Made by a program: the position numbers and the translations under genes
Virus record (IMG/VR): IMGVR_UViG_3300045988_126562
Direction: 5' to 3' (one strand)
DNA length: 64,000 nucleotides
From: a virus
Notes under the pieces: generated by a model
What the model was told of the DNA's origin: nothing
Seen by the model: the letters and a program-made list of their open reading frames with translations, nothing else
The model's database searches: none
Part shown: positions 7,472 through 63,804 of the stretch, piece by piece
Layout of the letters: each line of letters begins with the position of its first letter
Numbering within the stretch: the stretch's first letter is position 1

Positions 7472-7495
7472 CAAATAACTTTAAAAGGGAATAAT

Positions 7496-8626: not shown

Positions 8627-8644
8627 ATTTAAACTATAATAAAT

Positions 8645-12955: not shown

Positions 12956-13633
12956 ATGGTATTTGAAAAACTTTCTTCTGCAATATTTAATGATATAATA
13001 TCAGGCTTAAGAGGATATGCTTCTAATATATCCATGTCTTTAGAGCAACTAGAAGATGATATTGTTGATGAGAGGTTGCAGATAATAAAGGAATATTTTA
13101 TTAAAGGACTGGTTCCAAGAAGGGATTTAATGCTATCTCTTAATTGTGTAGAGCTGGATTGTGAATCTATGGACAGGTGTAGGTGTGGCAAAATGAGTGA
13201 TTGTGATGAATTAGTGGCACACTTTGAAATACCCCAGATATTAGGTGATTTCGGATCAGAAGCTATAGATTATATAGGTTCCACAGATAGACAAGTTCCA
13301 TTTATAGTATATACTAGTCCTCAATTCTGGAGGTATAGGAAATATAGAAAAAGAGGTAAAAATAGACCTTATGTTTTTATAGACACTACTCCTAATAAAA
13401 ATAATATGTATGATTGTTTTGTCTTTAACGCACCACTTCTTAAACAAATTTCAGTAGTAGCTATATTTAAAGATCCAAGACAGTTAGAACATTATGGATG
13501 TTGCCCAATAGGAGATATAGACAATTTTACCTTTATAAATAATGAAATAAAAAGAAGATTAACAGAAAAGAAGATTCGTTATTACCGTCAGTTACAACCA
13601 GTTCCAACCATTAATGATCAAGTTAACAGATGA
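12956..13633 (+). CDS. Putative head-tail connector/adaptor-region protein
   Basis: 225-aa ORF placed between the capsid genes and the giant tail genes. Assignment is by position only. Confidence 0.3.
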   Translation: MVFEKLSSAIFNDIISGLRGYASNISMSLEQLEDDIVDERLQIIKEYFIKGLVPRRDLMLSLNCVELDCESMDRCRCGKMSDCDELVAHFEIPQILGDFGSEAIDYIGSTDRQVPFIVYTSPQFWRYRKYRKRGKNRPYVFIDTTPNKNNMYDCFVFNAPLLKQISVVAIFKDPRQLEHYGCCPIGDIDNFTFINNEIKRRLTEKKIRYYRQLQPVPTINDQVNR

Positions 13634-14319
13634 ATGATTTTAATTATATATATACTATGGCTAATTCTCTATATGGCTTAGAACTAGAACCCGAAGAATT
13701 TGAGGAATTAGGACTTGTAGCTTGGAATTTAATAGGGAATAAGACTGTAAGATTATACAAGTATTGTTCTAGAATATCTTGCGAGGACTTATCTATTAAA
13801 CTTCCCTGCAACTGTGATATAATAGAAGCAGTGACTTACAATCACGAAGATTGGAACTATAGCACTAATAAAACAGTCAATGGAGATTATAACTCTCAGT
13901 TTACTGAACAATATATAGAAGCTAGGAAGTTATATCCTAATCCATTATACGTAAGTGGTAAATATGCTAAATATGAAAGGGTAGGAGATATTCTATATTT
14001 TGATAGGGACTATGGACAAGTAACAATACTATATAAAGGAGTTATTTTAGATGAAGATGGACTACCCCAAGTAACAGAAAAGGAGGCATTAGCTATATCC
14101 ACGTATATAGCCTTTGCCAAAAAGCAAAAACAAGGGTGGATTACTAATAATCAAAATTTAATTCAAATGGCTCAATATTTGTATCAACAATGGCTTAAGT
14201 ATTGTGATTCCGCAAGAGTTCCTATAAGCATTAGCCAGAATGAGATGAATGAGATTCTTGAAGCTAAATCTAGATGGGATAGGAAGATATTTAATAAGGC
14301 ATATAAACCTGTTAAATAA
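13630..14319 (+). CDS. Putative head-tail connector/adaptor-region protein
   Basis: 229-aa ORF whose start overlaps the upstream stop (ATGA at 13630-13633). Assignment is by position only. Confidence 0.3.
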   Translation: MNDFNYIYTMANSLYGLELEPEEFEELGLVAWNLIGNKTVRLYKYCSRISCEDLSIKLPCNCDIIEAVTYNHEDWNYSTNKTVNGDYNSQFTEQYIEARKLYPNPLYVSGKYAKYERVGDILYFDRDYGQVTILYKGVILDEDGLPQVTEKEALAISTYIAFAKKQKQGWITNNQNLIQMAQYLYQQWLKYCDSARVPISISQNEMNEILEAKSRWDRKIFNKAYKPVK

Positions 14320-24103: not shown

Positions 24104-25388
24104 TAAATATAAATCTAGAAAGAGACCTCCCTTAGTTAGAAAAGCTCAGGGAGGACTTTCTCTTCCTGCATATTATGGAGTCACTGGTGATATTACTTCA
24201 TTAAATAATGATTTACAACAGTATGCTAAAAGCGCAAATGTATTAAATTCGATAGCATCTTCAGATAAAGCTAAAGGATTGACTACATTTTTTGGTAAAG
24301 CTGGGGCTTTAGGTAAAGCTAACAACACTCTGTCTAAATCTGTGGGAGGAATACAAGGTATGCCCAGTATGGGAGGGTTAGCTACATCTGCACTTAGTGT
24401 GGCAGATAAATTTATTCCACAAGCAGAGGATAAAGGTAGTAAAATTACTAGTGGAGTATTTAATGGCCTTAGTCAAGTAGCAGGAATGATACCTGGTGTA
24501 GGAACAATAGCATCAGTTGCTTTAAAAGGATTGGGAACTTTATTTGGGGCAGGTGTGAAAAGTGTGAAAGGTAACGCTGCTGACGAAATGGTAGACACTT
24601 CTTCATCATATACAGGAGCTGATGCTTATGATTCAAAAAGATTTGGATTACTAGGACTAGGCTCAGCAAAAAAATATCAAAAGAAGGTAGATAAAAGGCA
24701 ATGGGAAAGAGATACAGCTCATGACATACTACAAGAAGGAAAAGACGACCTACTGGCTTCATCCAATGTGCAGCAACTGCAATTAGTTGACAACTTAAAT
24801 AAAAATGCTAGTGATTGGATGTACAATATAAGAGCTGGAGAGTTTGGAATGAAAATAAAAGAGGCAAAGAGGTTATCTAGATTAGCAAAGAAAAAAGTAT
24901 CAATATCTGGAGAGCCTAGAAAAATCGGAACCACTGAACTTCGGGAAGGGGGAAATATACCAAAGAATACCTCTATGAGTAGTGTAGAGTCTTCTACAGA
25001 GATTTCTCTTACTGGGGTGAAGCAACAATACCAGGAAGGTGAAAGTGGTCAGCAAGCTCCTGAAATATTCCAAAATGGAGGTCAAGTAAATATTATACCA
25101 GAAGGAGCATTACACGCTAGAAAACACAACCTAGTGGAGCTAAATCCTGAATTGGAAGGTATAACTAAAAAGGGTATCCCAGTAATAACTCAGGAAGAAG
25201 GAGGAATTGTACAGCATGCAGAAATAGAACGTTCTGAAATAATATTTGCTAAAGAAATAACTGATAAATTAGAGGAATTGAGAAATATAGGTACAGATGA
25301 AGCTGCTATAGAAGCAGGTAAATTACTGGCCGAACAGATAATAGAAAATACTATTGATAATACTGGAGAATTATTGCATGATAGTTAA
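24096..25388 (+). CDS. Putative internal/ejection (cargo) protein
   Basis: 430 aa with N-terminal RKAQGG motif (24141-24155), a Gly/Ala-rich hydrophobic stretch (about 24318-24591) and an internal FQNGG (25068-25082). Confidence 0.4.
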   Translation: MHNKYKSRKRPPLVRKAQGGLSLPAYYGVTGDITSLNNDLQQYAKSANVLNSIASSDKAKGLTTFFGKAGALGKANNTLSKSVGGIQGMPSMGGLATSALSVADKFIPQAEDKGSKITSGVFNGLSQVAGMIPGVGTIASVALKGLGTLFGAGVKSVKGNAADEMVDTSSSYTGADAYDSKRFGLLGLGSAKKYQKKVDKRQWERDTAHDILQEGKDDLLASSNVQQLQLVDNLNKNASDWMYNIRAGEFGMKIKEAKRLSRLAKKKVSISGEPRKIGTTELREGGNIPKNTSMSSVESSTEISLTGVKQQYQEGESGQQAPEIFQNGGQVNIIPEGALHARKHNLVELNPELEGITKKGIPVITQEEGGIVQHAEIERSEIIFAKEITDKLEELRNIGTDEAAIEAGKLLAEQIIENTIDNTGELLHDS

Positions 25389-25947
25389 AATAAATGATAA
25401 AGAGTATAGAGTTAAAATAGCTTATACTGATGAGGAAAAATCCAGAGGCTTGCAGGGAATAAATTCTTTACCAGAGGATGAAGGTATGTTATTTGTATAT
25501 GATGAACCTCAAACGGTTGGGTTTTGGATGGATGATACTAATATTCCATTAGATATAGTCTTTATAGACGATGATGAAGAAGTATTATCTGTATATTCTG
25601 GAGAGCCTAATGATAGAACTATAGCAGAGGAAGATAATGTAAAATATGTACTAGAAGTCAATCAAGGCTCTGGAATTAAAGAAGGAGACGAGATTGACAT
25701 AGAAGAAGAGGAGGATGATTCCGAAACCTCTAAAATGTTAGTGATTGGGCCAGATGGAGGAGTACAAATGGAATTAGAAGGAGGAGAAAGAATTGTTTCT
25801 AGAAGAGAGACTAAAATATTAGTAAAAAAGGCTAAAAAAGCATATAATTCTGAATTAGATTCTGATTACAAATCTTTAGGAAAATATATGTTTAAAGTGC
25901 TAAACAAACAGGATAAGCGTGAGCCTGAATATGTGGAACAAGAATGA
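25378..25947 (+). CDS. DUF192 (COG1430) domain protein with acidic C-terminal extension
   Basis: From ATG 25378: MIVKINDKEYRVKIAYTDEEKSRGLQG...EGMLFVYDEPQTVGFWMDDTNIPLDIVFID...VKYVLEVNQG. This matches the DUF192 signature (GLM..GMLF..FWM.nT..PLD..F). The start overlaps the previous stop. Confidence 0.75.
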   Translation: MIVKINDKEYRVKIAYTDEEKSRGLQGINSLPEDEGMLFVYDEPQTVGFWMDDTNIPLDIVFIDDDEEVLSVYSGEPNDRTIAEEDNVKYVLEVNQGSGIKEGDEIDIEEEEDDSETSKMLVIGPDGGVQMELEGGERIVSRRETKILVKKAKKAYNSELDSDYKSLGKYMFKVLNKQDKREPEYVEQE

Positions 25948-48900: not shown

Positions 48901-51334
48901 CTCCTCTATTAAGAAGAAATGCCATTTTTTCTACATAATCAGCTGCTCTTTCTCCGTTTATTAACCTTTCATATTCTGACTTAGCCTCATTGTAGGCATC
49001 CATATCTGTCTTACTTGGAGATTCCCCATCTTTAGTACTAGATATTTTGGCTTTGGCTTGGACTAGACTAGTTACTATGTTATTAAAATCAGTAGCTATA
49101 TTTTGTAATATACTATATGATTGATTAGCTAACTCTCTAGCTCTAAAATCACGACCTAATGCGGTATTTAGAATGTTATTTTTATCTACTTTACCTATTT
49201 CAGAATTTATAGCATTATCTATGGAATCTACTATAGATAACATAGTTTTCTTCATTATAGCATCTTGAGAGTCCTCGTAACTATTAGCTTTCTTAAAATA
49301 TGTAGTTCCATCTGGAGCAGTTTCTAATTGGGCAGATAAAGTTTTAGAACCGTAATCAGTATTCTCTATGATTTTCTTTATAGCAGATACTGGATTATTA
49401 GATACGATTTTTATTAAATTGCTTAAATCCTCTTTAGGTAATTCTGATACAGCACTGTTTCCACTAATTAATGATTCCCATTTTCTTATACCAGTAAAAA
49501 CAGCTGAACCCATAGCTCCACCTGCTGCTGACATTAAATACCTTTCTAAAGGATTAGTATTGAAGTAATTATATGTATCAGAACTCTCATGTAGTCCTAG
49601 TTTTTCTAAGGCCGAATTTATTGCAGAAGCTGATATTAAAGCAGCATCTTGTAAAAATTCTTCAGAAGTTTCTTCTATAGATTCTTTAAGCATATCTGCT
49701 TTTAGAGTACTTGGCCCTGTAATAATGTCTTTGAATTTTTTAGCAAATTCAGATCCATATTTTCTTATAGCATTATATGTAACTGATTTTGATTTTTCTT
49801 CAGCTACTTCAGATGCTAGTTTTCCTAAACCTTCAGACATTTCTCCAGCCAGCTTTTTTGTAACTGGTTTTACAGCTGCTCCTAACTCATCAAGACCTAA
49901 TCCTGAAAGAGCTATTTCTCCTAAACTAGTATTAAATAATTTGTTAAATCCATAGGCTGTTCCAAGTAAGCCAATAGCAGTAGTTGTTTCATCAAATCCA
50001 TTTTCTTTAAATGTATCATATACTCCCTGAGATTGAGTAACAACCATATACAATTTTGAGGCATCAGAAGCTCTCTTATTCAGCTGCATCATACTGTTGT
50101 AATTGTCTAATAATCTCTTCTCAGACAATAAACTGGTGGCAGATATATCTCCGTCAGCTAATGCTTTAGATATATTTTTTCCATATTTCTTTAAGTATGA
50201 GTCTCCATGCTCATTTATAAAATCCTTAAGTATTTTAGTATCGGATTTATTCCATTTCAAGAATTTGGGAATTTGAGCTATGGCTCTTTGTTGAAACAGC
50301 TGAGAAGCAACAGAAGATAGCATATTAGTTCCCTGTTCAAAATATCCATTTTCATCAGATGCAGAGCTGTCAAACCTTCTCATGAAAGCGCCATACATAT
50401 TAAATGCATTCCATAATCTGTTATTTGTATAGTTAGGATCAAGCATTTCGGTGCCAGCTTTACCAAATGTAGATAAAGCATCAGATAATAGTACTCCAGC
50501 CATTAAATAGCCGTAAGCTGTATTAACTCCTGGTATCAATAAAGGGGCCATTATAGCAGCTGTTTTGGCTATTTGTCCTCCTATACTTTTACTTACTCCG
50601 TCAGAATCAAATGGATCAAATTTATTCCAAAATGTTCCATCTACAGTTAAAGTATCCCATTGTTTTAGAAAGCTTTTTCCAGAAGCATCTCTGCCCCCTA
50701 GTGTTTCATAATAGAAATTGCCATCCTCGTCTATTTTATGTTCTCCTTTTTTATGTTCTACAGTTTGATTTGTAAATGGGTCTATATGTGTACCGTCTTC
50801 CTCCCAAACAGCTTCTACTAAAGGCTCCAATCCTAAAAAGTCAAATAGACCTCTTTTGTCATCATCGTTAGGGGTATATCCAAGAGATTTTCCAGTTCTC
50901 CAATCTCTTACTTCAGCATTTTGCATAGCTTCTCTCCTACTAAGAGATCCCTCGGTAGTTCTGAATATGCCAGAAAGTCCTTGTTTATATTGTGTAGGAT
51001 TAGCTACTTTTTTTAAATAAACCTCACCAGTAAGTCTATTCCTCTTTCTCATATCATCTAAATCATAGTCCTTTGCAAATGCTTGAAGTTCCTGATCCTG
51101 CATTACATAGTTACTGTACATTTTAGATACATTTTTATAAAACTTGTCAAAATTAGACTCATTAAATGTTCCATTGCTGTCAGTAAACATCTGCTTTATC
51201 TCTGGTATATCTTTATAATAATCCGCCTCTTTAAGAGTTAGGCTTGATTCTGTAATACCAGCTAAAGCCAAATCTTCATTGCTTTTTTCTGGATTGTGTA
51301 TAACTAAATCAAGCCAATCTATATTTTCATTCAT
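42953..51334 (-). CDS. Giant protein with central SF1 (RecD/AAA_30-type) helicase core
   Basis: 2793 aa. Walker A GDPGSGKTT (46709-46735, aa 1534-1542), Walker B VYVFIDEYTHF, LGDTKQ, DDVQGSEFKYVVVDV (45848-45892) and FYTHITRS. A hydrophobic segment lies near aa 262-300. Confidence 0.7.
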   Translation of the reverse strand: MNENIDWLDLVIHNPEKSNEDLALAGITESSLTLKEADYYKDIPEIKQMFTDSNGTFNESNFDKFYKNVSKMYSNYVMQDQELQAFAKDYDLDDMRKRNRLTGEVYLKKVANPTQYKQGLSGIFRTTEGSLSRREAMQNAEVRDWRTGKSLGYTPNDDDKRGLFDFLGLEPLVEAVWEEDGTHIDPFTNQTVEHKKGEHKIDEDGNFYYETLGGRDASGKSFLKQWDTLTVDGTFWNKFDPFDSDGVSKSIGGQIAKTAAIMAPLLIPGVNTAYGYLMAGVLLSDALSTFGKAGTEMLDPNYTNNRLWNAFNMYGAFMRRFDSSASDENGYFEQGTNMLSSVASQLFQQRAIAQIPKFLKWNKSDTKILKDFINEHGDSYLKKYGKNISKALADGDISATSLLSEKRLLDNYNSMMQLNKRASDASKLYMVVTQSQGVYDTFKENGFDETTTAIGLLGTAYGFNKLFNTSLGEIALSGLGLDELGAAVKPVTKKLAGEMSEGLGKLASEVAEEKSKSVTYNAIRKYGSEFAKKFKDIITGPSTLKADMLKESIEETSEEFLQDAALISASAINSALEKLGLHESSDTYNYFNTNPLERYLMSAAGGAMGSAVFTGIRKWESLISGNSAVSELPKEDLSNLIKIVSNNPVSAIKKIIENTDYGSKTLSAQLETAPDGTTYFKKANSYEDSQDAIMKKTMLSIVDSIDNAINSEIGKVDKNNILNTALGRDFRARELANQSYSILQNIATDFNNIVTSLVQAKAKISSTKDGESPSKTDMDAYNEAKSEYERLINGERAADYVEKMAFLLNRGVSGAFKNDLDIYTFAMSRGKNYATMSPEEQEELNNLYKVKISNDANKEDTAFNTFKFFRDKVLSDIQNISLQSENLQNRKVYQDSLDKIQEDLIKTYLPKEKIESFKSALESARDANLDAFIESNNLDKNNELETEEQKRIAADLFIQDELINWTENELNKVGALTSNVSLGVDTTLLAAPESTLLRYSELLSNIIASNSTIDSEVVDKLKRTFDYFNKFNFNDYSGTILERIKLELESGQTLTLDSFKSPTILEKFPQFNDGSGIVDITKNPDGTYNLMDENAEEPIEEIGVQLSDLDLKSIINDVFSGSVDSSTKIIGGLLPDNDYQGYNSKSGSMSKIIEEVLMSSLELNPNISILQEVASSLNQVKEKTVSDSPLRKMLETLSKELTGENVFSIINEEEKVFGSLNNLADYSIKNRITEGQLRAALGVISMAKSILKYSEGDNESEFGSMIDIVNNARKKSNLPEIPIVDSNAAIIWMKDLNRLSGDISYLLDLSSNNTVSKLKESSISLARNEANIIYALSDTEENKSIFGGVLEVNGNPFFDFKFTDSEQFFSNLSKNNFKDADDENTLARIDSIFTEMQEYYYNKFNNLSAEAKNELIDSIASIKGNGKVGLDYLKNFETKINRNSTIDDMSPEFIGNFLMSIFSINQKDLKKRFLKVLDGDNVYAPFFGQYLSISMAMAMEENPDLINKFIDRKSELNERELGNILFKNITIINGDPGSGKTTSVAYFIKQLIKEKNPDAKIIAAAPNSDQADKLSSLLGEAKGYSKSDLFNEVLTNKGKEFYDKITASYGNRTYGNGLILNPIPNINELVHQYKEPVYVFIDEYTHFSSYEMDLLTKIPNLRIVGLGDTKQEGFKVDGSPNYVSGIVYSAPSLMMSVRAANGHKQDNLSILSTILRTSLEDINNSRLAKINVNLSDRYQILSKETYLKYYEGNNKLQGDKTVNSISEPEIRNLISSLGEKEKITLITNKSKSSTLDLFQRLIEEFPDKINIKQADDVQGSEFKYVVVDVKYDKVRGSNDTQINDSFLGTLRAFYTHITRSSDGSIIIMEGNNVPIAGSIRMGYSSDSGLQQSDINNYKEVISSIYKRSTNSNTETINSDLEKMEANELDKPKNITAIEKNLVEREKEVTKEDDTPEFKKENLAIYFSSKHIGLSRTGENTFIPNSNREDLNLVLTSPMSKDEIISTPEYKAWSIMKRFSYAEDKENFLRQLKEGTNYINVFSKFTELLTGDRNNFLGMMDILEKGQLKLKISKLNADTDYQLDNLNYNRTSKNFSRIVLQLTGLDGQTYDITVADISENSNVGNSEFKKLINGDYPNPKYLNLNFDNIQVRGLISSSETNEYGLTLEKLQSLNPELTISNIYFESEGSFKGTPYVLVSDTPGITESEMLNSYGSEIFDIQKRKVSIIPYSYNDFFSQLNTLLESSKNHKTDYFKLRKFVPTALAPRLIASMYKLQYLLENENALNEYNKSIEEYNKEAEEFNKEADKIGGTYRKIIKKPLESTKENNRLLRSILALFAEKIPAESKEMVISEASLTNYQRAINKADIPALDQLLDEISIPKFNDLEIKFINKFKDRKLITLFKELSNPESSLYKDSNLISPNPNITGEQALSEKAQTMFESLSKISDTFSGRTLESVSDLFSSNLLFYTIKDLKLVEFFSKLEGEKQDLFRTSLEASGLFDNGILTQGRDVEAKYIEGYIKAAATKDKVYMYRQVLPRRAFIPYSSIEVNSNTNELNTDIQELYSKKLDELKANIDPELISQFNEITSKFQIEQSWTNDVLNENLNTYINNNYQRIKKLVWDSSPKLVSLQWKNNQLSSIRTDLNKNFLLNSSINPDILNSLADDNLNFVYQDDSIMIKSENGGIAIKINLDKTGNIRLSKTILSETNATVPITDSTKNITTSDLDKLLQKSFKTTITEDVSNLILTVNSTPNINDKVELLTEYIRKITDKKVGPKGKRAIENLFNKDNKSKC

Positions 51335-53208
51335 TAATAACCACTTAGTTTTATGTCATTCTTCCTTAAATCTAAGTCCATATTTAGTGCTGAGTTCATA
51401 CTCTTGGGAACATTAATTCCAGATAAATAAGACTGAGATGTTCTAATATCTGAAGCCTCTATAAAGAATGTTCCAGAATAAATATTATCTCCATGACCAA
51501 ACCATAGGAAAGTGTCGTTGTCTACTTCATTTTCTCCATCTTTACCTGAAATTAACTTGTTCATATAAGCATTTATTTGATCATAATTATTAGTTTCTTC
51601 AACATATGGATTATCTTCTCCAAATTTTATCTTAGAAGCTCCTCCATCTGCTGCTATAGCATTTACCATATAATATGGCCTTACCAAGCCATTTTGAACT
51701 AATAATCTAGGATTATCATATATTCCGTAATAATCTTCAGCTCCATGCCTTTTATATATTTCTCTCTGGTCTTTTTCTGGAACTACAGCTCTGCCACCAC
51801 TTCTCTTGATTTCTTTCTCAGCATCTTCTATACCTTTCAGTGCTTCTAAATCTGGTTTAGTAGAACCGTCAGGAAGTGTTTTAACTGGTAAATAAGCACC
51901 AACAACCTCTCCTCCCTGGAATCCTATTCTATCCAAATCCATAGGATCAACTTTTTTATTACCAAACCACATAGAATTTTTGTATCCAGTAGATAGAGTA
52001 CTATCCTCTATTACCTTATCCATTCTAGATTGACCTACAGTTTTTGTTCCATCATAAGTCTTTAAAGCCGGAAGAACTATAGCAGGAGTTTGGAAAGTAT
52101 ATGTACCTCCTGTGTTTATTTGGTAAAGTCTGGTGTTATCAGGAGAATTGAATCCATCCCATATTTCTCTATCTTGAGTTACATCTATAGTAGATTTTCC
52201 GTCTCCTTCTGATTTATCCTTGGATAAGGTAGACTCATAATCCACTTTAAAAGAATTTTTAGAGTCTATTTTAGACTTAATTAAACTAGTTAGAACTTGT
52301 CTAGATCCTTCATTAGGATCTAATCCATTTATTGCTGCTTTAGCCCTAATGTAATTTTTAGCGTTTTCTGGTAATGTAGAATATAAATAATCTAATGCAG
52401 CAGTAGCCTGTTCAACATTAGATTCCTCCTCTCTAGATATTTTATACACACCATCAGAAGTTATAGCAGCTCTTACTCTGGGATTGTCTATTAGCTGATT
52501 CATTCCATTCATTAATTTCTCCCCTCTAGAAGATACATATTCTGAGGAAGATGATATAGATTTACCTAAATCGGATATAACTAAGTTTATGTACTTTTGA
52601 ATATCTTCTTGCCCTATACCATTATTCAATACATTAAATATGTCACTATTAAAAGCTAAGTTGGGATTAATAGCTCTTAAATGAGCTAAATCTCCGTTAG
52701 TAACAGCTTTATATAGCCCTTGATTGGAATAATATTCATCAGGAGAAACCTGTGATAATTCACCAGTTTCCATATTTTGTACTACCATTCTACCAACATT
52801 AGAAATGGCTACATCAGATAATCCCCCATTTTCTGTTAATCTTTTTATATTAGAATCATATAATTCTTTGTTATATTTTATTTTGTTTATGTTACTTATA
52901 ATACCTAAATACTGACTACTAAGCAAAGACGGATCAATACTTCCACTCATTCTAAATGTAGGATCATTATATAATTGATTCATTGATTTAGTAAATGCTT
53001 CTACATCGCTCGGTAATCCTTGTTCCATTAGAAGTTTAACCATTTCTTTGGATAATAAACCATCATCATTTTGTCCAGATGATTTAGAAGATCCAGTGGT
53101 ATCTTCAGTTGATGGAGCTACTGGAGTTGTAGGTATAGGAGACCAACTTACAAAAGGAGGAGCAGCTCCTCCTTGTTGTAGTTTGGGTATATTAGTATGT
53201 ATTTTCAT
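51334..53208 (-). CDS. Putative virion cargo protein
   Basis: 624 aa. The N-terminus MKIHTNIPKLQQGGAAPP is paralogous to the N-terminus of the 108-aa protein. It is coupled to both neighbours (TAATG and ATGA overlaps). Confidence 0.4.
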   Translation of the reverse strand: MKIHTNIPKLQQGGAAPPFVSWSPIPTTPVAPSTEDTTGSSKSSGQNDDGLLSKEMVKLLMEQGLPSDVEAFTKSMNQLYNDPTFRMSGSIDPSLLSSQYLGIISNINKIKYNKELYDSNIKRLTENGGLSDVAISNVGRMVVQNMETGELSQVSPDEYYSNQGLYKAVTNGDLAHLRAINPNLAFNSDIFNVLNNGIGQEDIQKYINLVISDLGKSISSSSEYVSSRGEKLMNGMNQLIDNPRVRAAITSDGVYKISREEESNVEQATAALDYLYSTLPENAKNYIRAKAAINGLDPNEGSRQVLTSLIKSKIDSKNSFKVDYESTLSKDKSEGDGKSTIDVTQDREIWDGFNSPDNTRLYQINTGGTYTFQTPAIVLPALKTYDGTKTVGQSRMDKVIEDSTLSTGYKNSMWFGNKKVDPMDLDRIGFQGGEVVGAYLPVKTLPDGSTKPDLEALKGIEDAEKEIKRSGGRAVVPEKDQREIYKRHGAEDYYGIYDNPRLLVQNGLVRPYYMVNAIAADGGASKIKFGEDNPYVEETNNYDQINAYMNKLISGKDGENEVDNDTFLWFGHGDNIYSGTFFIEASDIRTSQSYLSGINVPKSMNSALNMDLDLRKNDIKLSGY

Positions 53209-56200
53209 AAAGTCATAGATTTTATTATAAGCTCCTTAGTAAGTCCAGACAGGGACATAATAAGTTTGTTATTTTCTTTTTGAGAGTCAGATATCATTTT
53301 ATGAAATAGTTTGCGATCATTGATAAGACTTTTATTAAAATCCTTAGTTCTCTCCAACATAGATTTTTCTTTATATGTTAGATGCCCTCCAGACTTATAT
53401 ACAAATAAAAAAGGACTATATTTGTATGTATTTCTCCTAGCCGTTATCATTCCAGTTCTGTATCTATCCATTGCTTTTGAAGCAGCAGTATTATATGCCT
53501 TCATAGCAGATACATATTCTGGAGAGGTTGCCCATCCAGTTTCATTATTTCCTTCCTTAGCTAAATATGCAGCTTTGCTGTTATTCAGAGCTGTTTGAGC
53601 TGATCTTAAAGCATTTTCATACTCTGTTCCTCTTGCATATTGACTTTCCTGATAATCTAACTCATTGTTTAGTTTCCTATTTTCTGCTATTTTCATCTCT
53701 TTATCCATCAACCACGGAGCTATAGCTTGCTGCCAATTGGCCGATCTGCGTTGGGCTTCTATATTAGCTTTAGCTTGCTTAATTCCTAACATTGAAGCTC
53801 TATTTCTATTAGAAACATCTACTCTAGCAGCAGCATTTTGTTCAGCAGCTTGTCTAGCTTCTGCTGTGGATTTGTCAATAGCTTGTTTGTCAGCAAAATA
53901 ACCTTTAGTTCTATATTCTCCTGCTCTATTATTAAAATCTAAAGCTTGTCCTAGAGCTAAATTAGCATCAGAAGTTATAGGTCTAGATCCCAATCTATTG
54001 GCTTCTGCTCCTAAATTTTCCATATAATTTCTGGTAACTAAATCACCCACTACTTGTCTTCTTATTTGTAAAGGGTCTAGTAGTAATGGAGATAAGGAGT
54101 TTTTTAATCCTCTAGCTATAGCATTATTAGTAGCTATTGTTCCTAATAATCTTCCAGTACCTATTACATCATCCCATCTTATAGATGCAGTATTTCTTTT
54201 CTTAGGGCCTATTAATCCGGGACTACCAGTATTTGGACTAATACCAGTTAATTCTTGAGTTATCTGGGCTGGGGTTGTTCCTTTTAACTCTGGTTCCTCT
54301 TCTTCTATTGTTCCTATGTAAGGATTTACACCCTTGTCAGGTGAGGAGGGATTAAGTTCCCTTAATTTATAATAATTATCAGCTTCATCCAAGTAAAAAT
54401 CAAGACCTATTCCTTTATAGTCATTTATCATTTTTTGAAGCTGAGATTCATTGTAGTCTCCCTTTCTTCCTAGAAGTCTTCTATCATCAGTTATTCCACT
54501 ATATAATCCATCTGCCACAAATGATTTAGTTGGATTATCACCTGAGTATGCTTTGTTAGATACATTATATCTTCCGCTTGTAAATGCATTATTTATACCT
54601 ATAGTATTTCCAAAACCTCCTCCAAAATTATTAAATACTTCTTGATAATTTCTTACAGAATCACTTTTATATGGATTAGATAAGAAATTTTTCCCTGCCA
54701 TACTATATAATCTAGCATGGTCTGACTGCATATTATTAATATCTTGGTAACTTATTTTTCCAAGCTTCAAAGCATCTATCAAACTTCTATGAGTAGGAGA
54801 ATAATAATTATCATACCAAGTAGTATTTGGATTAAATTGAACCCCAGACATTCCAGTGCCCTGTTGATATTTAAATATTGTTCCTCCTTCTTGTTTTTTA
54901 TTTACATATCCCTTATTATCATTTTTTCTTTTGGGAGTTGAGGTTTTCTTCTGCTTTTTAGGTAAATTGTTATTCTTTCTATGAGAGTTATTTCCAACAT
55001 TAAGAGATTTTAATAATTGATCTTGAAATTGGTAGTATGTGTTTTCTGTATTTTTCTTATTTGGAATATAAGATACCTCAGTAGAGGTAATTGGTTTCCA
55101 AGGATTACTGTATTTGTCGAAATCAAATGCATCTGCCGATCTCCACCAATCTTCATAGTTTTTCCTATTCAGTTCTCTGTTAGTTATGGTTCCAGTTTCA
55201 GGAAGAGCTAATTGAGGCGATTTAGATCTTTTAGCTGCTTCTCTATAGACTCTACCACTATATAAAGTAGGTTCTAAGGACCCTTCTCCTACTCTTTCAT
55301 AGGAAATCCTTTCTTTAGAAGGCATAGGAATTTTGGATTCTGATTTAGTCGAATTATTTTTTAATTTATATTCAGCATCCCTTCTTCTACTTGGAGCTGG
55401 AAGAGCTAATTGAGAAGTACTTCCTACTTGTCCCACAACTTTACCAGCCATTTGAATGCGGGCTAAATTATCTGCAATAGCATTTATATTATTTTGAGCT
55501 TCTTCAGATAGAGGAGCTTCTGATTTAACTTTACTTGGTTCTCCAGTGTCAGATTTTTGCTTAGCTCTTCTAGAAGCTATAGGATGTACTATTTTGTTAT
55601 AGGCATTTCTAACATTAGGACTTCCAGGTATACGTATATTTGGTAATTGAGCATTTCCTAACCATCTTTCTGCTGGACCAAAATTATGAACTAATTTTAA
55701 GTCTCCAGAATAAGTTATAGCTGGCTTATTAAAGTCATATAGATCAGTAGTCTTTATATCAGATTTACCTTTGCCCTTACCTCTCCAATTTGAGCTTTCT
55801 GTAAGGGTAATTCCTGTATCCTTTAATAATTCATTTTGTGTTTTTAAGTCAGGAGCCTCTGCTACTTTTTGAGCTAAATTTTTGTCTATAGATCTCCATC
55901 CCTGATCAGTTTTCATCCATACCTTATCTGTTGATTTTACAGATTGTATATTTGAATTAGCTTTGGAAGCTCTATGTACAGCTGCTGTACCTCCTGCTAC
56001 TAATTGTAAAGAATTTAAAATATTTCTCCAATCATTAACTGATAATGATTCCCCTTTACTTATTTTATTCCAAGAACTTAGATATTGATCAGAATTAGCT
56101 AATCCTTGAGCAGTAGCAATTAATCCTACCATTTTGGGAGCAAATTTGCCAACTGCCTTAATCATCTTGGGAACTTTAGCTGCTTTAGCAAATGGAATTA

Positions 56201-57758
56201 AAGATAGAGCATCTAGTCCATAACTGCCAAGATTATTGGATAGGGATTCTAAAAATGACATTCCCTCCATCATATCAGCAGTTTGATTTAAGGCGGTAGA
56301 TGTAGCTCCAATTCCAGCAGATGCTACTGAACCAACTCCAGACATACTAGCTATTAAGCTAGCTATATCTCCAGCTATGGCCCCCATTCTTACTTTGTCA
56401 GCTCTAGAGAACTCTGTATGAGTATCGCTAGAGTTTTCAAATCCAGTAGTAGCTTTACTAAGTTGCTTTTCTTCCCTAGCTCTTTGTTCTACGGCTTCTT
56501 GAGCTATTTTTCTGTTAGCACTTCTTATTTTTTCTGTGTTATCAACATACCATCCCTCTTGAGCTTTTATTATGTTACCTCCATTCTTATATTCCCAAGG
56601 TTTCTTCATCCCTAAAGACCTTTCTATATTATATATAAGTTTTTGCCTACCTTTTTCGAAAGTAGACATAGGAACCTTTTCTATAACGTTGGTATTCCTA
56701 TTAAACCTAAATATAGAACCTTCATTATCATTTGCTGATTCTGGTAAGTAGTAATAGTTATTTTCATAGAATCCCTGATCTTCTAGGTCTTTTATTTTTT
56801 CTTTAGAAAAGTATCCCCAGAACCTATTAGAAAATGAATTAGAATCGTTAGAATAGTTTTGACTATTCCAATTTGCCCAATTTACTGGATTTCTTCTAGA
56901 AAACTCATCTATACTGGAATATCCTTCTAAATTAAAATTGGGATTTATTAGTTTACTACTAAAGTAAAAGGAATCTCCAGATTCTCTATTAGCTTTAATA
57001 GCTTCTTCTACTCTTTCTTCCAAGCTTTCCTTTTCAGATTTAGGAGTAGTGCCATAATTTTTATCAAAATATTGCCTAAAATCTCCTAGTCTAGAACCCA
57101 GTATTAGATCATTAGAATTATCATTATCATTAAAAGCATTAAAAAAGTCAGAAAATCTTGACTCATAATCTTCTTTATTAGACCAATTACCAGATTTAAA
57201 TCTATCATACTCTGATTTTACTACTTTTAATACATTATCTCTAGCTTGATCATAATTCCACCTTGTGGGGTCAAAAGTAGAACTATTGAAGTAGTACTTG
57301 TTTATTATATCTGGAGAAAAAGAATATTCTTTAGGTTTTTCTTGCGTTTCTTTCTTTTCAACTGGTGCAGTATAAATTGAAACTCCCTTGAATATATTAT
57401 CCAGTATACCGTAAGCATTATTCTTGTAAAAATCTTCATCCTTTTTATATTTCCCAGTCCATTTAGTCTTATTTACTCCTGTACTAGCTAGACTAGGATC
57501 TCCAAATATCTGAAATCTACCAGAAGCATCTCTTCCTTTTATAGACCCGGATTTTATTCCAGACATTATTTTATATGTATAGTCCCTAATAATTTGTTTG
57601 TCTGAACTATCTAAATCCAGTGAATTTAATTCATCGTCTATTTGTTGTGCATAAGCTCTATTAAGATCATCAAAATTATAATCACCTATACCCTCATGAT
57701 GAAATAATATTGGTTTATTAATAGAATTTCCGTTAGCATACTTTCTTACTTGTGCCAT
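53205..57758 (-). CDS. Putative ejection/tape-measure-like internal protein
   Basis: 1517 aa with a Gly/Ala/Ser-rich hydrophobic block (MGAIAGDIASLIASMSGVGSVASAGIGATS..., about 56079-56396). It also has C-terminal coiled coils and internal KNGG/KAQEGW (56550-56588) and KKQEGG (54882-54899) motifs. Confidence 0.4.
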   Translation of the reverse strand: MAQVRKYANGNSINKPILFHHEGIGDYNFDDLNRAYAQQIDDELNSLDLDSSDKQIIRDYTYKIMSGIKSGSIKGRDASGRFQIFGDPSLASTGVNKTKWTGKYKKDEDFYKNNAYGILDNIFKGVSIYTAPVEKKETQEKPKEYSFSPDIINKYYFNSSTFDPTRWNYDQARDNVLKVVKSEYDRFKSGNWSNKEDYESRFSDFFNAFNDNDNSNDLILGSRLGDFRQYFDKNYGTTPKSEKESLEERVEEAIKANRESGDSFYFSSKLINPNFNLEGYSSIDEFSRRNPVNWANWNSQNYSNDSNSFSNRFWGYFSKEKIKDLEDQGFYENNYYYLPESANDNEGSIFRFNRNTNVIEKVPMSTFEKGRQKLIYNIERSLGMKKPWEYKNGGNIIKAQEGWYVDNTEKIRSANRKIAQEAVEQRAREEKQLSKATTGFENSSDTHTEFSRADKVRMGAIAGDIASLIASMSGVGSVASAGIGATSTALNQTADMMEGMSFLESLSNNLGSYGLDALSLIPFAKAAKVPKMIKAVGKFAPKMVGLIATAQGLANSDQYLSSWNKISKGESLSVNDWRNILNSLQLVAGGTAAVHRASKANSNIQSVKSTDKVWMKTDQGWRSIDKNLAQKVAEAPDLKTQNELLKDTGITLTESSNWRGKGKGKSDIKTTDLYDFNKPAITYSGDLKLVHNFGPAERWLGNAQLPNIRIPGSPNVRNAYNKIVHPIASRRAKQKSDTGEPSKVKSEAPLSEEAQNNINAIADNLARIQMAGKVVGQVGSTSQLALPAPSRRRDAEYKLKNNSTKSESKIPMPSKERISYERVGEGSLEPTLYSGRVYREAAKRSKSPQLALPETGTITNRELNRKNYEDWWRSADAFDFDKYSNPWKPITSTEVSYIPNKKNTENTYYQFQDQLLKSLNVGNNSHRKNNNLPKKQKKTSTPKRKNDNKGYVNKKQEGGTIFKYQQGTGMSGVQFNPNTTWYDNYYSPTHRSLIDALKLGKISYQDINNMQSDHARLYSMAGKNFLSNPYKSDSVRNYQEVFNNFGGGFGNTIGINNAFTSGRYNVSNKAYSGDNPTKSFVADGLYSGITDDRRLLGRKGDYNESQLQKMINDYKGIGLDFYLDEADNYYKLRELNPSSPDKGVNPYIGTIEEEEPELKGTTPAQITQELTGISPNTGSPGLIGPKKRNTASIRWDDVIGTGRLLGTIATNNAIARGLKNSLSPLLLDPLQIRRQVVGDLVTRNYMENLGAEANRLGSRPITSDANLALGQALDFNNRAGEYRTKGYFADKQAIDKSTAEARQAAEQNAAARVDVSNRNRASMLGIKQAKANIEAQRRSANWQQAIAPWLMDKEMKIAENRKLNNELDYQESQYARGTEYENALRSAQTALNNSKAAYLAKEGNNETGWATSPEYVSAMKAYNTAASKAMDRYRTGMITARRNTYKYSPFLFVYKSGGHLTYKEKSMLERTKDFNKSLINDRKLFHKMISDSQKENNKLIMSLSGLTKELIIKSMTL

Positions 57759-57769
57759 ATACTTGAAAT

Positions 57770-57804
57770 AAAAAAGGAGTATGTAACGAAATCACACACT
57801 CCTT
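57770..57804 (-). terminator. Hairpin plus U-run between the 108-aa gene and the 1517-aa gene (possible attenuator)
   Basis: On the minus strand: AAGGAGT (57804-57798), a 17-nt loop, ACTCCTT (57780-57774), then TTTTATTT. Confidence 0.4.
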
Positions 57805-57809
57805 ATAAA

Positions 57810-58136
57810 TTAAACTCTCCTGACTATCAATCCACCATTTTTGAATACTGGTTCCCCTTGAGGAGCTTCTTGAGGACCTCCTGCACCACCTGCCATTTGT
57901 TGGATTAATTGTAAAAATCCTTCACACACAGCTAATGCTAATTGACCATCTCCTGCTTGTAATGCTTGCTGTGCCATTTGAGCTAGCTGCATAATTGGAT
58001 CTCCTCCTGCATCTGGACCAGCTGCTGGAGCTGGAGCACCTGTAGGTTGTCCTGCTGGAGCAGCCATTCCTTGTTCTTGTGGAGTGGGAGCTGCCCCTCC
58101 TTCTTGAAATTTTGCTACTTTTGAATTAATTTTCAT
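57810..58136 (-). CDS. Small Ala/Gly/Pro/Gln-rich low-complexity protein, first gene of the giant operon
   Basis: The start is moved from 58202 to ATG 58136 (MKINSKVAKFQEGGAAP). The -7 promoter box abuts 58202, and the new N-terminus aligns with that of the 624-aa protein. The gene is locally GC-rich. Confidence 0.5.
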   Translation of the reverse strand: MKINSKVAKFQEGGAAPTPQEQGMAAPAGQPTGAPAPAAGPDAGGDPIMQLAQMAQQALQAGDGQLALAVCEGFLQLIQQMAGGAGGPQEAPQGEPVFKNGGLIVRRV

Positions 58137-58203
58137 TTTTACATGATTTAATATGTTAGTACTAACTATCGAATTATTCAATAGCTCGATCATTGTAATC
58201 ATG

Positions 58204-59863: not shown

Positions 59864-60640
59864 TTAGTTGTTTTTTATTTCGTTGTAAGCTTGGTCTTCC
59901 AATTCTGGTGTGACGTCTTCAAGACGAATGCCTTTCATACAAGGACAGTTTTTCCATTGAATATCATAATCACAAGAAAGTAAAAGTAAATCAGTATTAT
60001 CAGCATTAACGGCCATAATCCAATTATCGGAAGCTGTCTCTACTTCAACACAGTCAATTGCCCTTGTGGGTTTAGGTATCCATCCATTATTAATCTCGTA
60101 GTACCATAAAAGACAAGTACTAAAATATCTTCCAGTAAGAACATTATCTTTATGCTCAAATAGTCCTCCACTCCAACAAACAGGGCTTTTATTTTCAGTC
60201 CATTCTTTAGTGGCAAAACTATACTTACCAGTAGCTCGCTTAGTGAAAGCTCCATTATAATGAATACTACCATCTGGCTCCTTGAAAACATCACTTTTAC
60301 GCTTGTTTTGACAAGTACCATCTGCACTTATTTGTTCCCATTCATCATCGGTAAATCTAAGGGGACTAATAATATCCCAATTGCAAAGCCTTTTAACAAG
60401 ATTAATCTCCCAGGGAGCTGACATTCCAGAGTTACCATGAGAACTAAATACAGCTATAGCTTCGAGAACTTGTTGGTACATCCAATCATTTGGACCACCT
60501 TCTCCTCCATATCCAGCTAGTTTAAGCTCTTTTATTGCGTGTTGACAAAGATTACTTTCTCTAATAATACGTTGAAGAACTTTTTTATTAATAAGTTCTT
60601 TCTTTTGCTGCTTCTTAATATATCGTTTACTATGTTTCAT
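59864..60640 (-). CDS. Hypothetical protein
   Basis: 258-aa ORF with a basic N-terminus and many Trp/Cys residues. No motif recognised. Confidence 0.4.
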   Translation of the reverse strand: MKHSKRYIKKQQKKELINKKVLQRIIRESNLCQHAIKELKLAGYGGEGGPNDWMYQQVLEAIAVFSSHGNSGMSAPWEINLVKRLCNWDIISPLRFTDDEWEQISADGTCQNKRKSDVFKEPDGSIHYNGAFTKRATGKYSFATKEWTENKSPVCWSGGLFEHKDNVLTGRYFSTCLLWYYEINNGWIPKPTRAIDCVEVETASDNWIMAVNADNTDLLLLSCDYDIQWKNCPCMKGIRLEDVTPELEDQAYNEIKNN

Positions 60641-61435: not shown

Positions 61436-61842
61436 TCTACTTTATACTTAGTATTATTTTCGTCATAGTAATAAATTTCAATTCCTTGAAATACTAAAAA
61501 TGAATATTCATTTCTGCTTGCTAGACAACTTTGTATTTCACTTCTTTCTTTAGAAATATAAAATTCACAATCTAACAAATCCATAAATACATTATATTCT
61601 ACTTCAGATAGTCCAATATATTCTCCTGGATATTCTTTTTCATAGTTATCAAAGCATATACCCCAATGGTCTTTAAGAGGTTTTAATTTATTTAATATAC
61701 TTACATACTTAACAACCTTTTCTATCTCGGATTCGTTACAGATGAAATCATATGTAGTATTTCCGTTAGCATCTCCTATCATATAATTAAATATTACATG
61801 ATAATAAGGAGTTTGATTCTTTATAGGGATTAATTTTATCAT
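61426..61842 (-). CDS. Hypothetical protein
   Basis: 138-aa ORF with ATGA coupling to the Sir2 gene. Confidence 0.4.
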   Translation of the reverse strand: MIKLIPIKNQTPYYHVIFNYMIGDANGNTTYDFICNESEIEKVVKYVSILNKLKPLKDHWGICFDNYEKEYPGEYIGLSEVEYNVFMDLLDCEFYISKERSEIQSCLASRNEYSFLVFQGIEIYYYDENNTKYKVEWN

Positions 61843-62513
61843 AATTTTTGGATTAATTGTTTCATTCCTTCTGTAGCAGTAGCTTTGATAACTTCAATAT
61901 CAAGATATTCAGGAGTGGGAGCAGGATTAGGGTCAATATAATAAATGGGAACTCCGTACTCTACATATTGTACTAGGCCAGCAGCCGGATATACGTTAAA
62001 ACTAGTTCCAATAACTACGCAAATGTCAGCATCTAATAATTCTTTAGAAGCAAGCTCAATATTGGGAACATCCTCTCCAAATAATACAATGTGAGGTCTT
62101 ACTTTATGTCCTCTAATTTCAGTTTCCGGTGTAATATCATCTAAGTACTCAAAATATAAATTATCATCGTCTATTGCCCTTACTTGGTTTAGATTACCAT
62201 GTAAGTGAATTATGTTAGTAGAGCCAGCTTGCTCATGCAAAGTATCTACATTCTGAGTTATAACTACCACATTATAATCCTTCTCTAACTCAGCTATGAT
62301 TTTATGGGCATCATTTGGCTTACATCCTGCATATTTCTTCCTAAGCTCGTTCATAAAGTTATATACTACATCAGGATGTTCCACTATAGCTCTATGAGTA
62401 GCTATATCTTCTACTTTATGATTTTCCCAAAGACCTGTTACTGCATCCCTAAATGTTGGGATTCCAGATTCTGCTGAAATACCCGCTCCTGTTAAAAATA
62501 CTATTTTCTTCAT
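61839..62513 (-). CDS. Sir2-family NAD-dependent deacylase/ADP-ribosyltransferase-like protein lacking zinc-ribbon cysteines
   Basis: 224 aa with GAGISAESGIPTFR, TQNVDTLH, the catalytic His in IHLHGN, RPHIVLFGE and VIGTSFNVYPAA. No CxxC pairs occur between the His and RPHIV. Confidence 0.8.
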   Translation of the reverse strand: MKKIVFLTGAGISAESGIPTFRDAVTGLWENHKVEDIATHRAIVEHPDVVYNFMNELRKKYAGCKPNDAHKIIAELEKDYNVVVITQNVDTLHEQAGSTNIIHLHGNLNQVRAIDDDNLYFEYLDDITPETEIRGHKVRPHIVLFGEDVPNIELASKELLDADICVVIGTSFNVYPAAGLVQYVEYGVPIYYIDPNPAPTPEYLDIEVIKATATEGMKQLIQKL

Positions 62514-63279: not shown

Positions 63280-63804
63280 TTATAACTTTCTAAACATTTC
63301 AAATATTAGCTTGTCATGCCCAAACGCCCAATCATATTTGTTAACATCAGCTAGGGGAATCCAAGCTAAGTCATCACATTCGTCCTTCTCAGAAAATACT
63401 TTAGATAGTTGAGGTTTAAAATGAAATCTAATTAGTCCAGCATAATAAAAAGTAATATTCTGAAGTACATCATCCTCAGGATTGCTATTAAATCCCTTGA
63501 AATCCAGATGTAAATCATAGTAAGAATCTCCTACTTGTAAACTAGTTTCCTCCAATAATTCTCTCGCTGCTGCTTCTTGTACGGTTTCGTTATAATCTAC
63601 ATATCCGCAAGGGCAACACCATTTTCCTATGTTATTAGGGCATCCTGGACCTCTTTTTACCGCCGCTACACACCACTCATCATTCATGTTAGAGAATACA
63701 AATATAGCTGTAGCACAGGAACGGCTATGCCAAACTGTCTTCCCTTTCATGTTTTCTCCATCTACTATAATATCCTCTGTTATTTTAATTGGAAAATTTT
63801 TCAT
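63280..63804 (-). CDS. Nudix hydrolase
   Basis: The Nudix box GYVDYNETVQEAAARELLEETSL fits G-x5-E-x7-R-E-U-x-E-E-x-(G/S)-U. 174 aa. Confidence 0.8.
   Translation of the reverse strand: MKNFPIKITEDIIVDGENMKGKTVWHSRSCATAIFVFSNMNDEWCVAAVKRGPGCPNNIGKWCCPCGYVDYNETVQEAAARELLEETSLQVGDSYYDLHLDFKGFNSNPEDDVLQNITFYYAGLIRFHFKPQLSKVFSEKDECDDLAWIPLADVNKYDWAFGHDKLIFEMFRKL

Follow-up and report, generated by a model that had tools for sequence, protein, structure and literature searches.

The 64-kb stretch of viral DNA analyzed here (64,000 nucleotides, IMG/VR record IMGVR_UViG_3300045988_126562; hereafter the window), which belongs to a 145.6-kb contig of an uncultured metagenomic assembly (IMGVR_UViG_3300045988_105784), encodes four proteins of 108, 430, 624 and 1517 amino acids (aa) that share a short Gly-Gly motif. 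We put the chance at about one half that this motif is an uncleaved docking or joint signal of cargo proteins other than RNA polymerase (RNAP) in a divergent clade of crassviruses, the most abundant viruses of the human gut. In the window and eight divergent relatives, the motif is enriched about 8-fold in the four proteins, whereas other proteins carry it at chance level. Judging from the aligned sequences, it comes as two related half-motifs, an N-type, [KR]-φ-Q-x-G-G (φ, hydrophobic residue), which lies within the first 20 residues in all four families, and a C-type, φ-φ-[KR]-x-G-G-x-φ-φ. The four genes form a block between the muzzle gene and the genes of giant RNAP-like proteins, which is the position of C1 and C2 in crAss001. 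An earlier note on this DNA had described a candidate cargo-targeting or processing signal on four putative virion proteins. Of this, the shared signal holds, being real, selected and confined to proteins in the cargo position, with the reservation that RNAP-like cargo does not carry it; speaking of four virion proteins was too simple, as they are better described as the non-RNAP block beside the muzzle gene, with gene position suggesting residence in the virion.

Enrichment was tested with the pattern of the earlier note, [KR].[QAK].GG, left unmodified. Within the window it matches the four proteins four times, a count attained in 1 of 500 shuffles; shuffling inside each protein gives an expectation of 0.50. 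The other 35 open reading frames (ORFs) have two matches versus 1.19 expected. A six-frame scan gave six matches, all in real coding frames, compared with 1.5 in dinucleotide shuffles, none of 100 of which reached six. In the eight diverged genomes there were 31 matches in the four families versus 3.6 expected, and their non-motif proteins, including the muzzle and giant RNAP-like proteins, stood at expectation (2 versus 2.4 in 37,385 aa). The earlier note would have taken a similar frequency in non-structural proteins or shuffled sequences as a refutation, and this is not what we see. A refined pattern, φ-[QK]-x-G-G, yielded six matches versus 1.0 expected (0 of 500 shuffles); it was derived after viewing the data, and the independent test in the relatives weighs more.

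An artefact of chance or composition, of recent DNA duplication, or of a nucleotide signal such as a Shine-Dalgarno-like GGAGG had to be considered, given that the four proteins are relatively Gly-rich (8.6 GG versus 4.7 per 1000 aa) and that GGAGG encodes the Gly pair in 6 of the 7 window copies. The observed counts, however, exceed those in composition-preserving shuffles. A Shine-Dalgarno-like signal is ruled out by the Gly codon pairs following the background, as only 17 of 42 motif GG pairs in the relatives are GGAGG, with about 50% GGA among their Gly codons; a recent duplication of the leader is ruled out by a DNA identity of 67% between the two near-identical leaders, with synonymous differences. 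The K, φ and Q positions are moreover kept as amino acids across genomes using three genetic codes. Synonymous codon variation tracks background Gly codon use, and selection therefore acts on the protein. The shuffle, codon and leader comparisons refute the artefact explanation, whose remaining probability is negligible.

Translation places KFQEGG (58095-58112, minus strand), KLQQGG (53167-53184, minus), KNGGNIIKAQEGW (56550-56588, minus), KKQEGGTIFKYQQGTG and FQNGG (25068-25082, plus) exactly where the earlier note had them, and its start of the 108-aa protein (M23 of a 130-aa ORF) is correct, homologues beginning MKI... or MQI.... Two further sites are present with a 3-base offset from the positions given there: 24141-24155 encodes KAQGG, with the R of RKAQGG at 24138-24140, and 57831-57842 encodes KNGG, with the F of FKNGG at 57843-57845. 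An extra copy, VYKSGGHLT at aa 1453-1461 of the 1517-aa protein, had been overlooked. Gene callers tend to misplace starts near the motif: a 130-aa ORF (57810-58202) is given for the small protein of the window, while homologues support the 108-aa start, three entries of the 624-aa family (P0074-P0076) begin with MVYTP, past the motif, and in one entry of the 1517-aa family (P0160) the start is called inside the protein.

Conservation was assessed in homologue sets of 86 (624-aa), 92 (1517-aa) and 3485 (430-aa) sequences and in 132 representatives of the small, 108-aa family. Counting back from the second Gly as P1, the N-type motif of the small family has Q at P4 in 99/100 members, F, Y or L at P5 in 91/100, and K or R at P6 in 80/100; in the 624-aa family P4 is Q in 81/81. 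In the latter, Q11, G13 and G14 are conserved to 97–100% at a mean column conservation of 48%, and the region of IPKLQQGG is among the three best-conserved 8-residue blocks. In a motif-selected alignment of the small family (A2), M1, Q11, G13, G14, G101 and G102 are the sole invariant columns; in the unselected set the N-type is found in about 100 and the C-type in 91 of 126 representatives, the latter reading GEPV[FY][KR]xGGxLxRR at the C-terminus. The 430-aa family shows the N-type consensus [IV]-[RK]-K-[GA]-Q-x-G-[LG] after a basic stretch, and its C-type enters the most conserved block of the family, FKNGGS(I/V)N(V/I)IPEGALHARK, where G328, G329, N332, I334, P335, G337, L339, H340, A341, R342 and K343 are invariant in 30 sequences. 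The earlier note was right in taking RKYANGN of the 1517-aa protein as a degenerate motif, a decayed copy of RKY[SAQ]xGG seen in homologues. In all four families the motif keeps its position down to about 25% identity. Between 1 and 30 residues precede the N-type, which can begin at residue 2-3 (MKFQEGG..., P0323); behind it usually comes a flexible linker rich in Pro, Ala and Ser. Pro follows the GG in 9/100 members of the small family (9%). The C-type was not found in the 624-aa family. Where proteins are encoded separately, the half-sites at their free N- and C-termini are invariant.

The small protein consists of an N-type motif, a Pro/Ala/Gln-rich linker, a helical hairpin, a second linker and a C-type hairpin with a basic tail. 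The 1517-aa protein has four motif sites at conserved positions, the last a C-type copy about 60 residues before the protein end, and a Gly/Ala-rich hydrophobic segment; the 430-aa protein has a Gly-zipper-like hydrophobic region. In the internal copies of the 1517-aa protein, C-type and N-type are fused, as in YKNGG-NII-KAQEGW, and the junctions of homologues hold one to three 9-residue units, GG-φ-φ-x-K-φ-Q-x; junction 1 is kept in 23 diverse homologues. The internal copies do mark module boundaries, as indels, gene fusions and gene fissions occur there; the polyprotein cleavage that the earlier note had proposed for them is not supported. In P0428 (366 aa), a glucosaminidase-like domain is fused to the small-protein module via SLKQGGTL...RKFQEGG, and in relative L009 (6885-8126) two hydrolase domains have KFENGGIIKYQQAG between them, which suggests that wall-degrading enzymes carried by the virion may be recruited via the same motif system. 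Other genes of the block are without the motif: Peptidase_M15_3 (L007), a lysozyme (L010) and an ADP-ribosylglycohydrolase (L002).

None of the window's giant RNAP-like proteins (2793, 3181, 978 and 1493 aa) carries the motif, which is for this reason not a general cargo tag; it marks the non-RNAP cargo set, presumably channel-forming or ejectosome proteins. Pfam and PHROGs gave no match for any of the four motif proteins, and a near-identity DNA search of the region among GenBank phages returned nothing. A tblastn search with the 624-aa protein and the C-terminal domain of the 430-aa protein found only two unannotated records, and a related-locus search of IMG/VR with the 624-aa protein only the source contig.

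AlphaFold2, run on the small protein with a 60-sequence alignment, gave a confident helical hairpin at residues 47-84 (helices 47-61 and 64-84; predicted local distance difference test, pLDDT, >90) and predicted the C-type as a β-hairpin with an N-G-G turn (strands 96-99 and 103-107; pLDDT 67-76). Pairing of the N- and C-type within the small protein was not predicted in this run, and a Foldseek search of the model against the PDB found generic helical hairpins only (E>4). Two chemical roles were considered and dropped: transglutaminase-type Q/K cross-link sites, raised by the K...Q arrangement, are ruled out by the frequent Arg at the C-type position (PVYRRGG), and Asn-Gly autocleavage by the x position not being conserved as Asn.

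In crAss001, the virion cargo proteins C1 (gp45) and C2 (gp46) are encoded at the corresponding place, and the RNAP-associated gp47, gp49 and gp50 come next; the N-terminal part of gp45 sits in the tail, its expected order of exit is N to C, and residues 425-552 form an ordered portal-bound segment as seen by cryo-EM (PMC10172136). This segment starts at a tandem AFGGWLNTQGGDF, the tail-barrel helix (214-245) comes after SAYGGPLE, and about 11 looser aromatic-(x)-GG sites lie along gp45, which shares with the window proteins the gene position between the muzzle gene and the RNAP-like giants, the Gly-zipper hydrophobic segments and a basic N-terminus followed by φ-x-x-GG (NIFDTGG); its basic C-terminus, ...KAKGGKVRTKKKK, resembles the tail of the small protein. 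Six of 12 gp45 homologues have a deletion of about 110 residues exactly between AFAEGG and AKDGG, so that GG sites are module boundaries in gp45, too. Indels and duplications in gp45-type C1 proteins are likewise bounded by GG sites (L011-L055; L052 has a long insertion after AFADGG), and C1 of DAC15 (L059) has a duplicated unit, AEGG-x5-GGGIHIKK...Y-C-GG. The comparison with named families covered Steigviridae and Suoliviridae. In both, a basic stretch followed by φ-x-x-GG heads C1: in crAss001 gp45 and, among its relatives, 15 further distinct N-terminal variants (NIFDTGG, NMFENGG, NSYANGG, RYYDLGG), in DAC15 and IAS virus, and, as NCFSGGG, in the C1-position protein of the Suoliviridae phage cr52_1; C1 of cr108_1 begins KLQKGVG, with no GG there. 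This looser form differs from the motif of the window in lacking the invariant Gln. The N-terminus of gp46 is without GG, and the window clade adds to the block two motif proteins, of 108 and 1517 aa, together with a DUF192 gene. The cr52_1 record (L056, NC_055888) is annotated with a transfer-messenger RNA (SsrA) gene of its own (256-636), a tRNA-Gln and in-frame late-gene stops.

We envisage the N-type, which heads each of the four proteins, as an amphipathic strand ending in a Gly-Gly turn, and the C-type, with basic residues following it, as a β-hairpin; in fused modules one runs directly into the other, in 9-residue units whose middle strand would be common to both. Both would stay on the proteins and act as recognition elements for oriented incorporation with the N-terminus toward the tail. 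A binding function is inferred here, as is the partner: one site shared by all of them in the portal, the tail barrel or the muzzle, or else the motifs of other cargo proteins. Proteins incorporated in this way would be poised for ordered N-to-C ejection ahead of the DNA. Because half-sites are invariant at free termini of separately encoded proteins, each half-motif would work alone. The disorder of the N-type in the AlphaFold2 monomer would be as expected of a peptide that folds upon binding.

Several points weigh against such a docking signal. AlphaFold2 gives no confident structure for the N-type, and its model of the 430-aa protein (pLDDT 40) is unusable. As the RNAP-like giants are without the motif, a second incorporation route must exist. 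The junction copies would be accounted for just as well by a GG-directed protease that is encoded beyond the 64-kb window or comes from the host. That the four proteins reside in the virion is suggested by synteny with crAss001 only, and homology between the 430-aa protein and gp45 is not significant (BLASTP, E=0.45; hhalign, also with enlarged alignments, E=0.13-0.19, probability <1%); a profile search of PDB sequences did not retrieve gp45, and the 624-aa protein has no significant BLASTP match to crAss001 gp46. Because homology to gp45 and gp46 could not be shown, we claim no family membership and, going by gene position, refer to the 430- and 624-aa proteins as "C1-position" and "C2-position" proteins only. 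By eye, VNIIPEGALH...GIPV of the 430-aa protein resembles VTFINEGGSH...G(A/I)P of gp45. The 2018 crAss001 paper with its supplements gives band sizes, with no assignment of a band to gp45.

The most serious competitor of docking, although unlikely, is cleavage at the motif by a maturation protease, whether or not a targeting leader is involved: N-terminal leaders and C-terminal tails would be trimmed off, and both the 1517-aa protein and the two-domain hydrolases would be polyproteins cut at their junctions. Short conserved sites in otherwise variable linkers and at module boundaries would fit cleavage, gene fusion and fission at the sites are expected if the products are equal either way, GG-X is a known signature in packaged core proteins of adenovirus, African swine fever virus (ASFV) and poxviruses, and a DUF192 gene is always embedded in the block. 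The processing site suggested by the earlier note was nonetheless not borne out. Docking is favoured because no peptidase family was detected by Pfam or PHROGs in the 39 ORFs of the window (64 of 145.6 kb), and because separately encoded proteins retain invariant half-sites at their free ends, C-termini included, which a pure junction-cleavage role leaves unexplained. A lead of 1 to 30 residues likewise favours docking, being plausible ahead of a terminal binding peptide but unsuited to a leader that has to be recognized and removed and that can here be as short as 1-2 residues. Most endopeptidases do not cut before Pro, and Pro occupies P1' in the small-family members counted above and after several GG sites of crAss001 and DAC15. 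P4 is Q or K, not the hydrophobic residue required by adenain, and one to three strand-turn repeats would be natural for a small β-sheet but redundant for a cleavage site. The crAss001 authors, finally, read gp45 as a single chain bridging tail and capsid, with no protease or processing reported (PMC10172136). Directly upstream of the capsid gene lies a 385-aa ORF (7469-8626, plus strand) with an acidic N-terminus and no family match; its position makes it a scaffolding candidate, and if a maturation protease has escaped recognition anywhere in the window, it would be here.

Two further ideas leave the proteins uncut. Rather doubtful is a passive Gly-Gly turn or hinge with β-strands that separates modules and eases their threading through the tail, with no shared partner. 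Placement at module boundaries and indel hot spots, the predicted hairpin and the looser sites along gp45 would agree with it, as would the need of the cargo to partly unfold in order to traverse the tail (PMC10172136). A hinge, however, would require neither near-invariance of the Gln, with K/R at P6 and an aromatic residue at P5, nor extreme N-terminal placement in four different proteins, nor would 97–100% retention be expected while the rest diverges to 25% identity. Improbable, and more so than a hinge, is that the motif acts after ejection, as an epitope for a component of the Bacteroidota envelope or periplasm or as a driver of co-assembly of a trans-envelope channel. Its confinement to the presumed channel or ejectosome set plus peptidoglycan hydrolases, to the exclusion of RNAP-like cargo, and the basic N-termini, expected to exit first, would fit, but no host partner is known, the strands of 5–6 residues between GG turns are too short for a membrane span, and C-terminal copies are not leading ends.

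A further reading, and a rather speculative one, is that the C-type hairpin and the N-type strand are halves of one small β-sheet joint, formed in cis where fused and in trans between proteins, which would link the cargo head-to-tail. The chain would run from the C1-position protein via the small and the 1517-aa protein to the 624-aa protein; the free N-type end of the first would lie in the tail or muzzle, and the last would need no C-type, the 624-aa family indeed having none. The particle would hold a pre-threaded non-covalent chain to be pulled out in fixed order before the DNA, and hydrolase or other effector domains could join it just by carrying the joint.

Among known systems, the T4 capsid-targeting sequence (CTS) would by analogy be the closest functional counterpart. 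In IPI-III and Alt, the CTS comprises about 10 residues, attaches to the scaffolding core and is cut off by gp21 at (L/I)-x-E. It is a short N-terminal sequence common to several unrelated packaged and later injected proteins, much as the N-type is a short conserved N-terminal sequence in all four families; the window motif differs in having copies at C-termini and internal junctions and a variable distance from Met-1 (1 to 30 residues). No protease or scaffolding core is known for it, the 39 window ORFs (64 of 145.6 kb) having yielded no peptidase family. Clan CE proteases cut at (M/L/I)-X-G-G↓X (adenain), on pp220/pp62 (ASFV pS273R) and at A-G↓X (poxvirus I7). Shared with these is a Gly-Gly signature in packaged internal proteins of a double-stranded DNA virus, at polyprotein-like junctions, while the motif departs from the adenain/pS273R consensus by Q or K at P4 (Q in 99/100 small-family and 81/81 624-aa family members), a hydrophobic P5 and a frequent Pro at P1'; neither a clan CE nor another protease was detected in the window ORFs. 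Double-glycine bacteriocin leaders have hydrophobic residues at -4, -7 and -12 and are exported by ATP-binding cassette (ABC) transporters with a C39 peptidase. They, too, are N-terminal stretches ending in GG near residue 14; here, however, -4 is Gln, the upstream part is basic and of variable length, there are C-terminal and internal copies, and neither a C39 peptidase nor an ABC transporter is encoded in the window. The repeats-in-toxin (RTX) nonapeptide GGxGxDxUx, with Gly-4 and a Ca-binding Asp-6, forms long arrays. It resembles the 9-residue units in starting with GG, in its hydrophobic position and as a likely strand-turn unit, but GG-φ-φ-x-K-φ-Q-x lacks Gly-4 and Asp-6, occurs as 1-3 units per site and has conserved Lys and Gln. 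The ejection proteins of T7 (gp14/15/16, gp6.7, gp7.3), P22 (gp7/16/20) and N4 (gp51/52) are comparable as internal sets ejected before the DNA, some with peptidoglycan hydrolase domains and with small proteins included. We know of no report of a terminal motif common to them. A recent Schitovirus paper (2026) mentions no such motif on ejection proteins and states that crassvirus ejection protein structures are still to be resolved. Short incorporation or docking signals on phage internal proteins are thus a known type, and we found no description of the present one: it is not described in the crAss001 cargo paper (PMC10172136), and a literature string search with motif peptides returned unrelated matches only.

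A short invariant motif would serve as a handle to spot ejected proteins where homology searches fail, as with the C1- and C2-position proteins of this clade, for which neither a Pfam or PHROG match nor any similarity to gp45 or gp46 was detectable. Among cultured relatives, crAss001 and DAC15 carry the looser form, so that concrete residues can be mutated there, giving access to cargo loading and ordered ejection in the most abundant order of gut phages. If sufficient for loading, the motif could tag foreign proteins for Bacteroidota-targeting particles; should it turn out to be a cleavage site, Crassvirales would have a maturation protease that has so far gone unrecognised.

Table 1. Genes and motif copies bearing on the Gly-Gly motif (window coordinates unless a relative's locus is named)
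Feature	Position	Strand	Basis and remarks
Major capsid protein gene	8645-10063		PF23898 Crass_capsid, 4.1e-15, above cut-off (Pfam)
Tail ring protein 2 gene	12956-13633		PF25702 CrAss_Ring_2 match, score under Pfam cut-off
Tail ring protein 1 gene	13630-14319		PF24228 CrAss_Ring_1, 1.4e-08, above cut-off (Pfam)
Muzzle protein gene	19301-24103	+	PF25731 crAss_MUZ, 2e-23, above cut-off; anchors cargo block
430-aa protein, C1 gene position	24096-25388	+	ORF; 3485 homologues; directly downstream of muzzle gene
N-type VRKAQGG, aa 14-20 of 430-aa protein	24135-24155	+	After basic stretch
C-type IFQNGG of 430-aa protein	25065-25115	+	Runs into near-invariant VN(I/V)IPEGALHARK
DUF192 gene	25354-25947	+	PF02643, 3.4e-26; without motif; candidate partner of motif proteins
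DUF192 copies in relatives	L002 4180-4734; L003 3512-4162; L006 5176-5739; L007 3927-4514; L010 8688-9278		Synteny
624-aa protein, C2 gene position	51334-53208	-	ORF; 86 homologues
N-type IPKLQQGG, aa 7-14 of 624-aa protein	53167-53190	-	Followed by conserved PPFVSWSP
1517-aa protein, big, modular, cargo-like	53205-57758	-	ORF; 92 homologues
C-proximal C-type VYKSGGHLT of 1517-aa protein	53376-53402	-	Homologue alignment
Junction 2, KKQEGGTIFKYQQGTG, aa 954-969 of 1517-aa protein	54852-54899	-	After Lys-rich stretch
Junction 1, EYKNGGNIIKAQEGW, aa 389-403 of 1517-aa protein	56550-56594	-	C-type fused to N-type
Degenerate N-type VRKYANGN, aa 4-11 of 1517-aa protein	57726-57749	-	Homologues: MAQVRKY[SAQ]xGG
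Small motif protein, 108 aa	57810-58136	-	ORF; 132 representative relatives, E<=0.001
C-type PVFKNGGLIVRRV, aa 96-108 of small protein	57813-57851	-	Predicted β-hairpin, N-G-G turn, basic tail
N-type KVAKFQEGG, aa 6-14 of small protein	58095-58121	-	Translation

Because its major capsid protein is only about 23% identical to those of classified crassviruses, we place the phage, at the level of sequence, in a divergent, large-genome crAss-like clade; the contigs of its relatives measure 145 to 185 kb, and the G+C content of the window is 31%. Ten genomic contexts were compared. The gene order in the relatives runs from the muzzle via the C1-position protein (411-595 aa), optional inserts (lysozyme, glucosaminidase, homing endonucleases) and DUF192 to the small protein (80-115 aa), the big protein (976-1715 aa), a 606-658-aa protein and giant proteins of 2,650-3,190 aa. 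Exceptions to colinearity are L005, where the 10 kb upstream show no muzzle, C1-position or DUF192 gene, and L008, whose contig is too short on that side. The gene of the 430-aa protein overlaps the end of the muzzle gene, and the same order is found in L003, L006, L007, L009 and L010. In the window, the part from the small protein through the giant RNAP-like genes (25997-58136, minus strand) is inverted relative to the side with the muzzle, C1-position and DUF192 genes (97-25947, plus strand), while the same block is colinear on one strand in L002, L003, L006, L007, L009 and L010; crAss001 shows another partial inversion, with gp48-gp50 on the opposite strand.

A DUF192 (PF02643) gene lies between the C1-position gene and the small protein wherever this part of the block was captured, namely in the window and six relatives; L009 has two copies (8126-8923 and 8910-9530), one with a weak GIY-YIG match. 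No DUF192 gene is present in the crAss001 and cr52_1 regions examined, and the solved relatives 3M7A and 3PJY are uncharacterised. For the motif proteins, the DUF192 protein might act as a partner, a chaperone or an enzyme.

The late-gene block is recoded in several relatives, with TAG read as Gln in L002, L009 and L010 (e.g., M-TAG-QGG = MQQGG) and TGA as Trp in L003 and L008; with these assignments zero internal stops remain in the block, and the window itself uses the standard code. Stop-codon reassignment has thus switched repeatedly inside one clade. One homologue of the 1517-aa protein, P0125, carries the NCBI label of a hypothetical protein from the Firmicute 'Intestinibacter sp.'; this is the sole host-like label seen for the clade, and its source is probably a phage contig binned into a metagenome-assembled genome.

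Beside the cargo block lies an anti-defence or nicotinamide adenine dinucleotide-related cluster (59864-60640, 61839-62513 and 63280-63804, all on the minus strand) with a homologue of the Thoeris inhibitor Tad3 (PF25185, 8.6e-36), a SIR2-family protein (1.8e-41) and a NUDIX hydrolase (7e-16); genes for YqeY, HAD_SAK_2 and a deoxynucleoside monophosphate kinase separate it from the small protein. The start of the structural block (97-561, 2366-2821 and 3707-4090, all on the plus strand) encodes a Gly-rich 154-aa protein, a 151-aa protein with a sub-threshold BclA_C-like match and a DUF5675 protein (3.2e-33); the first of these contains KRNAGG, one of the two off-target matches to the pattern.

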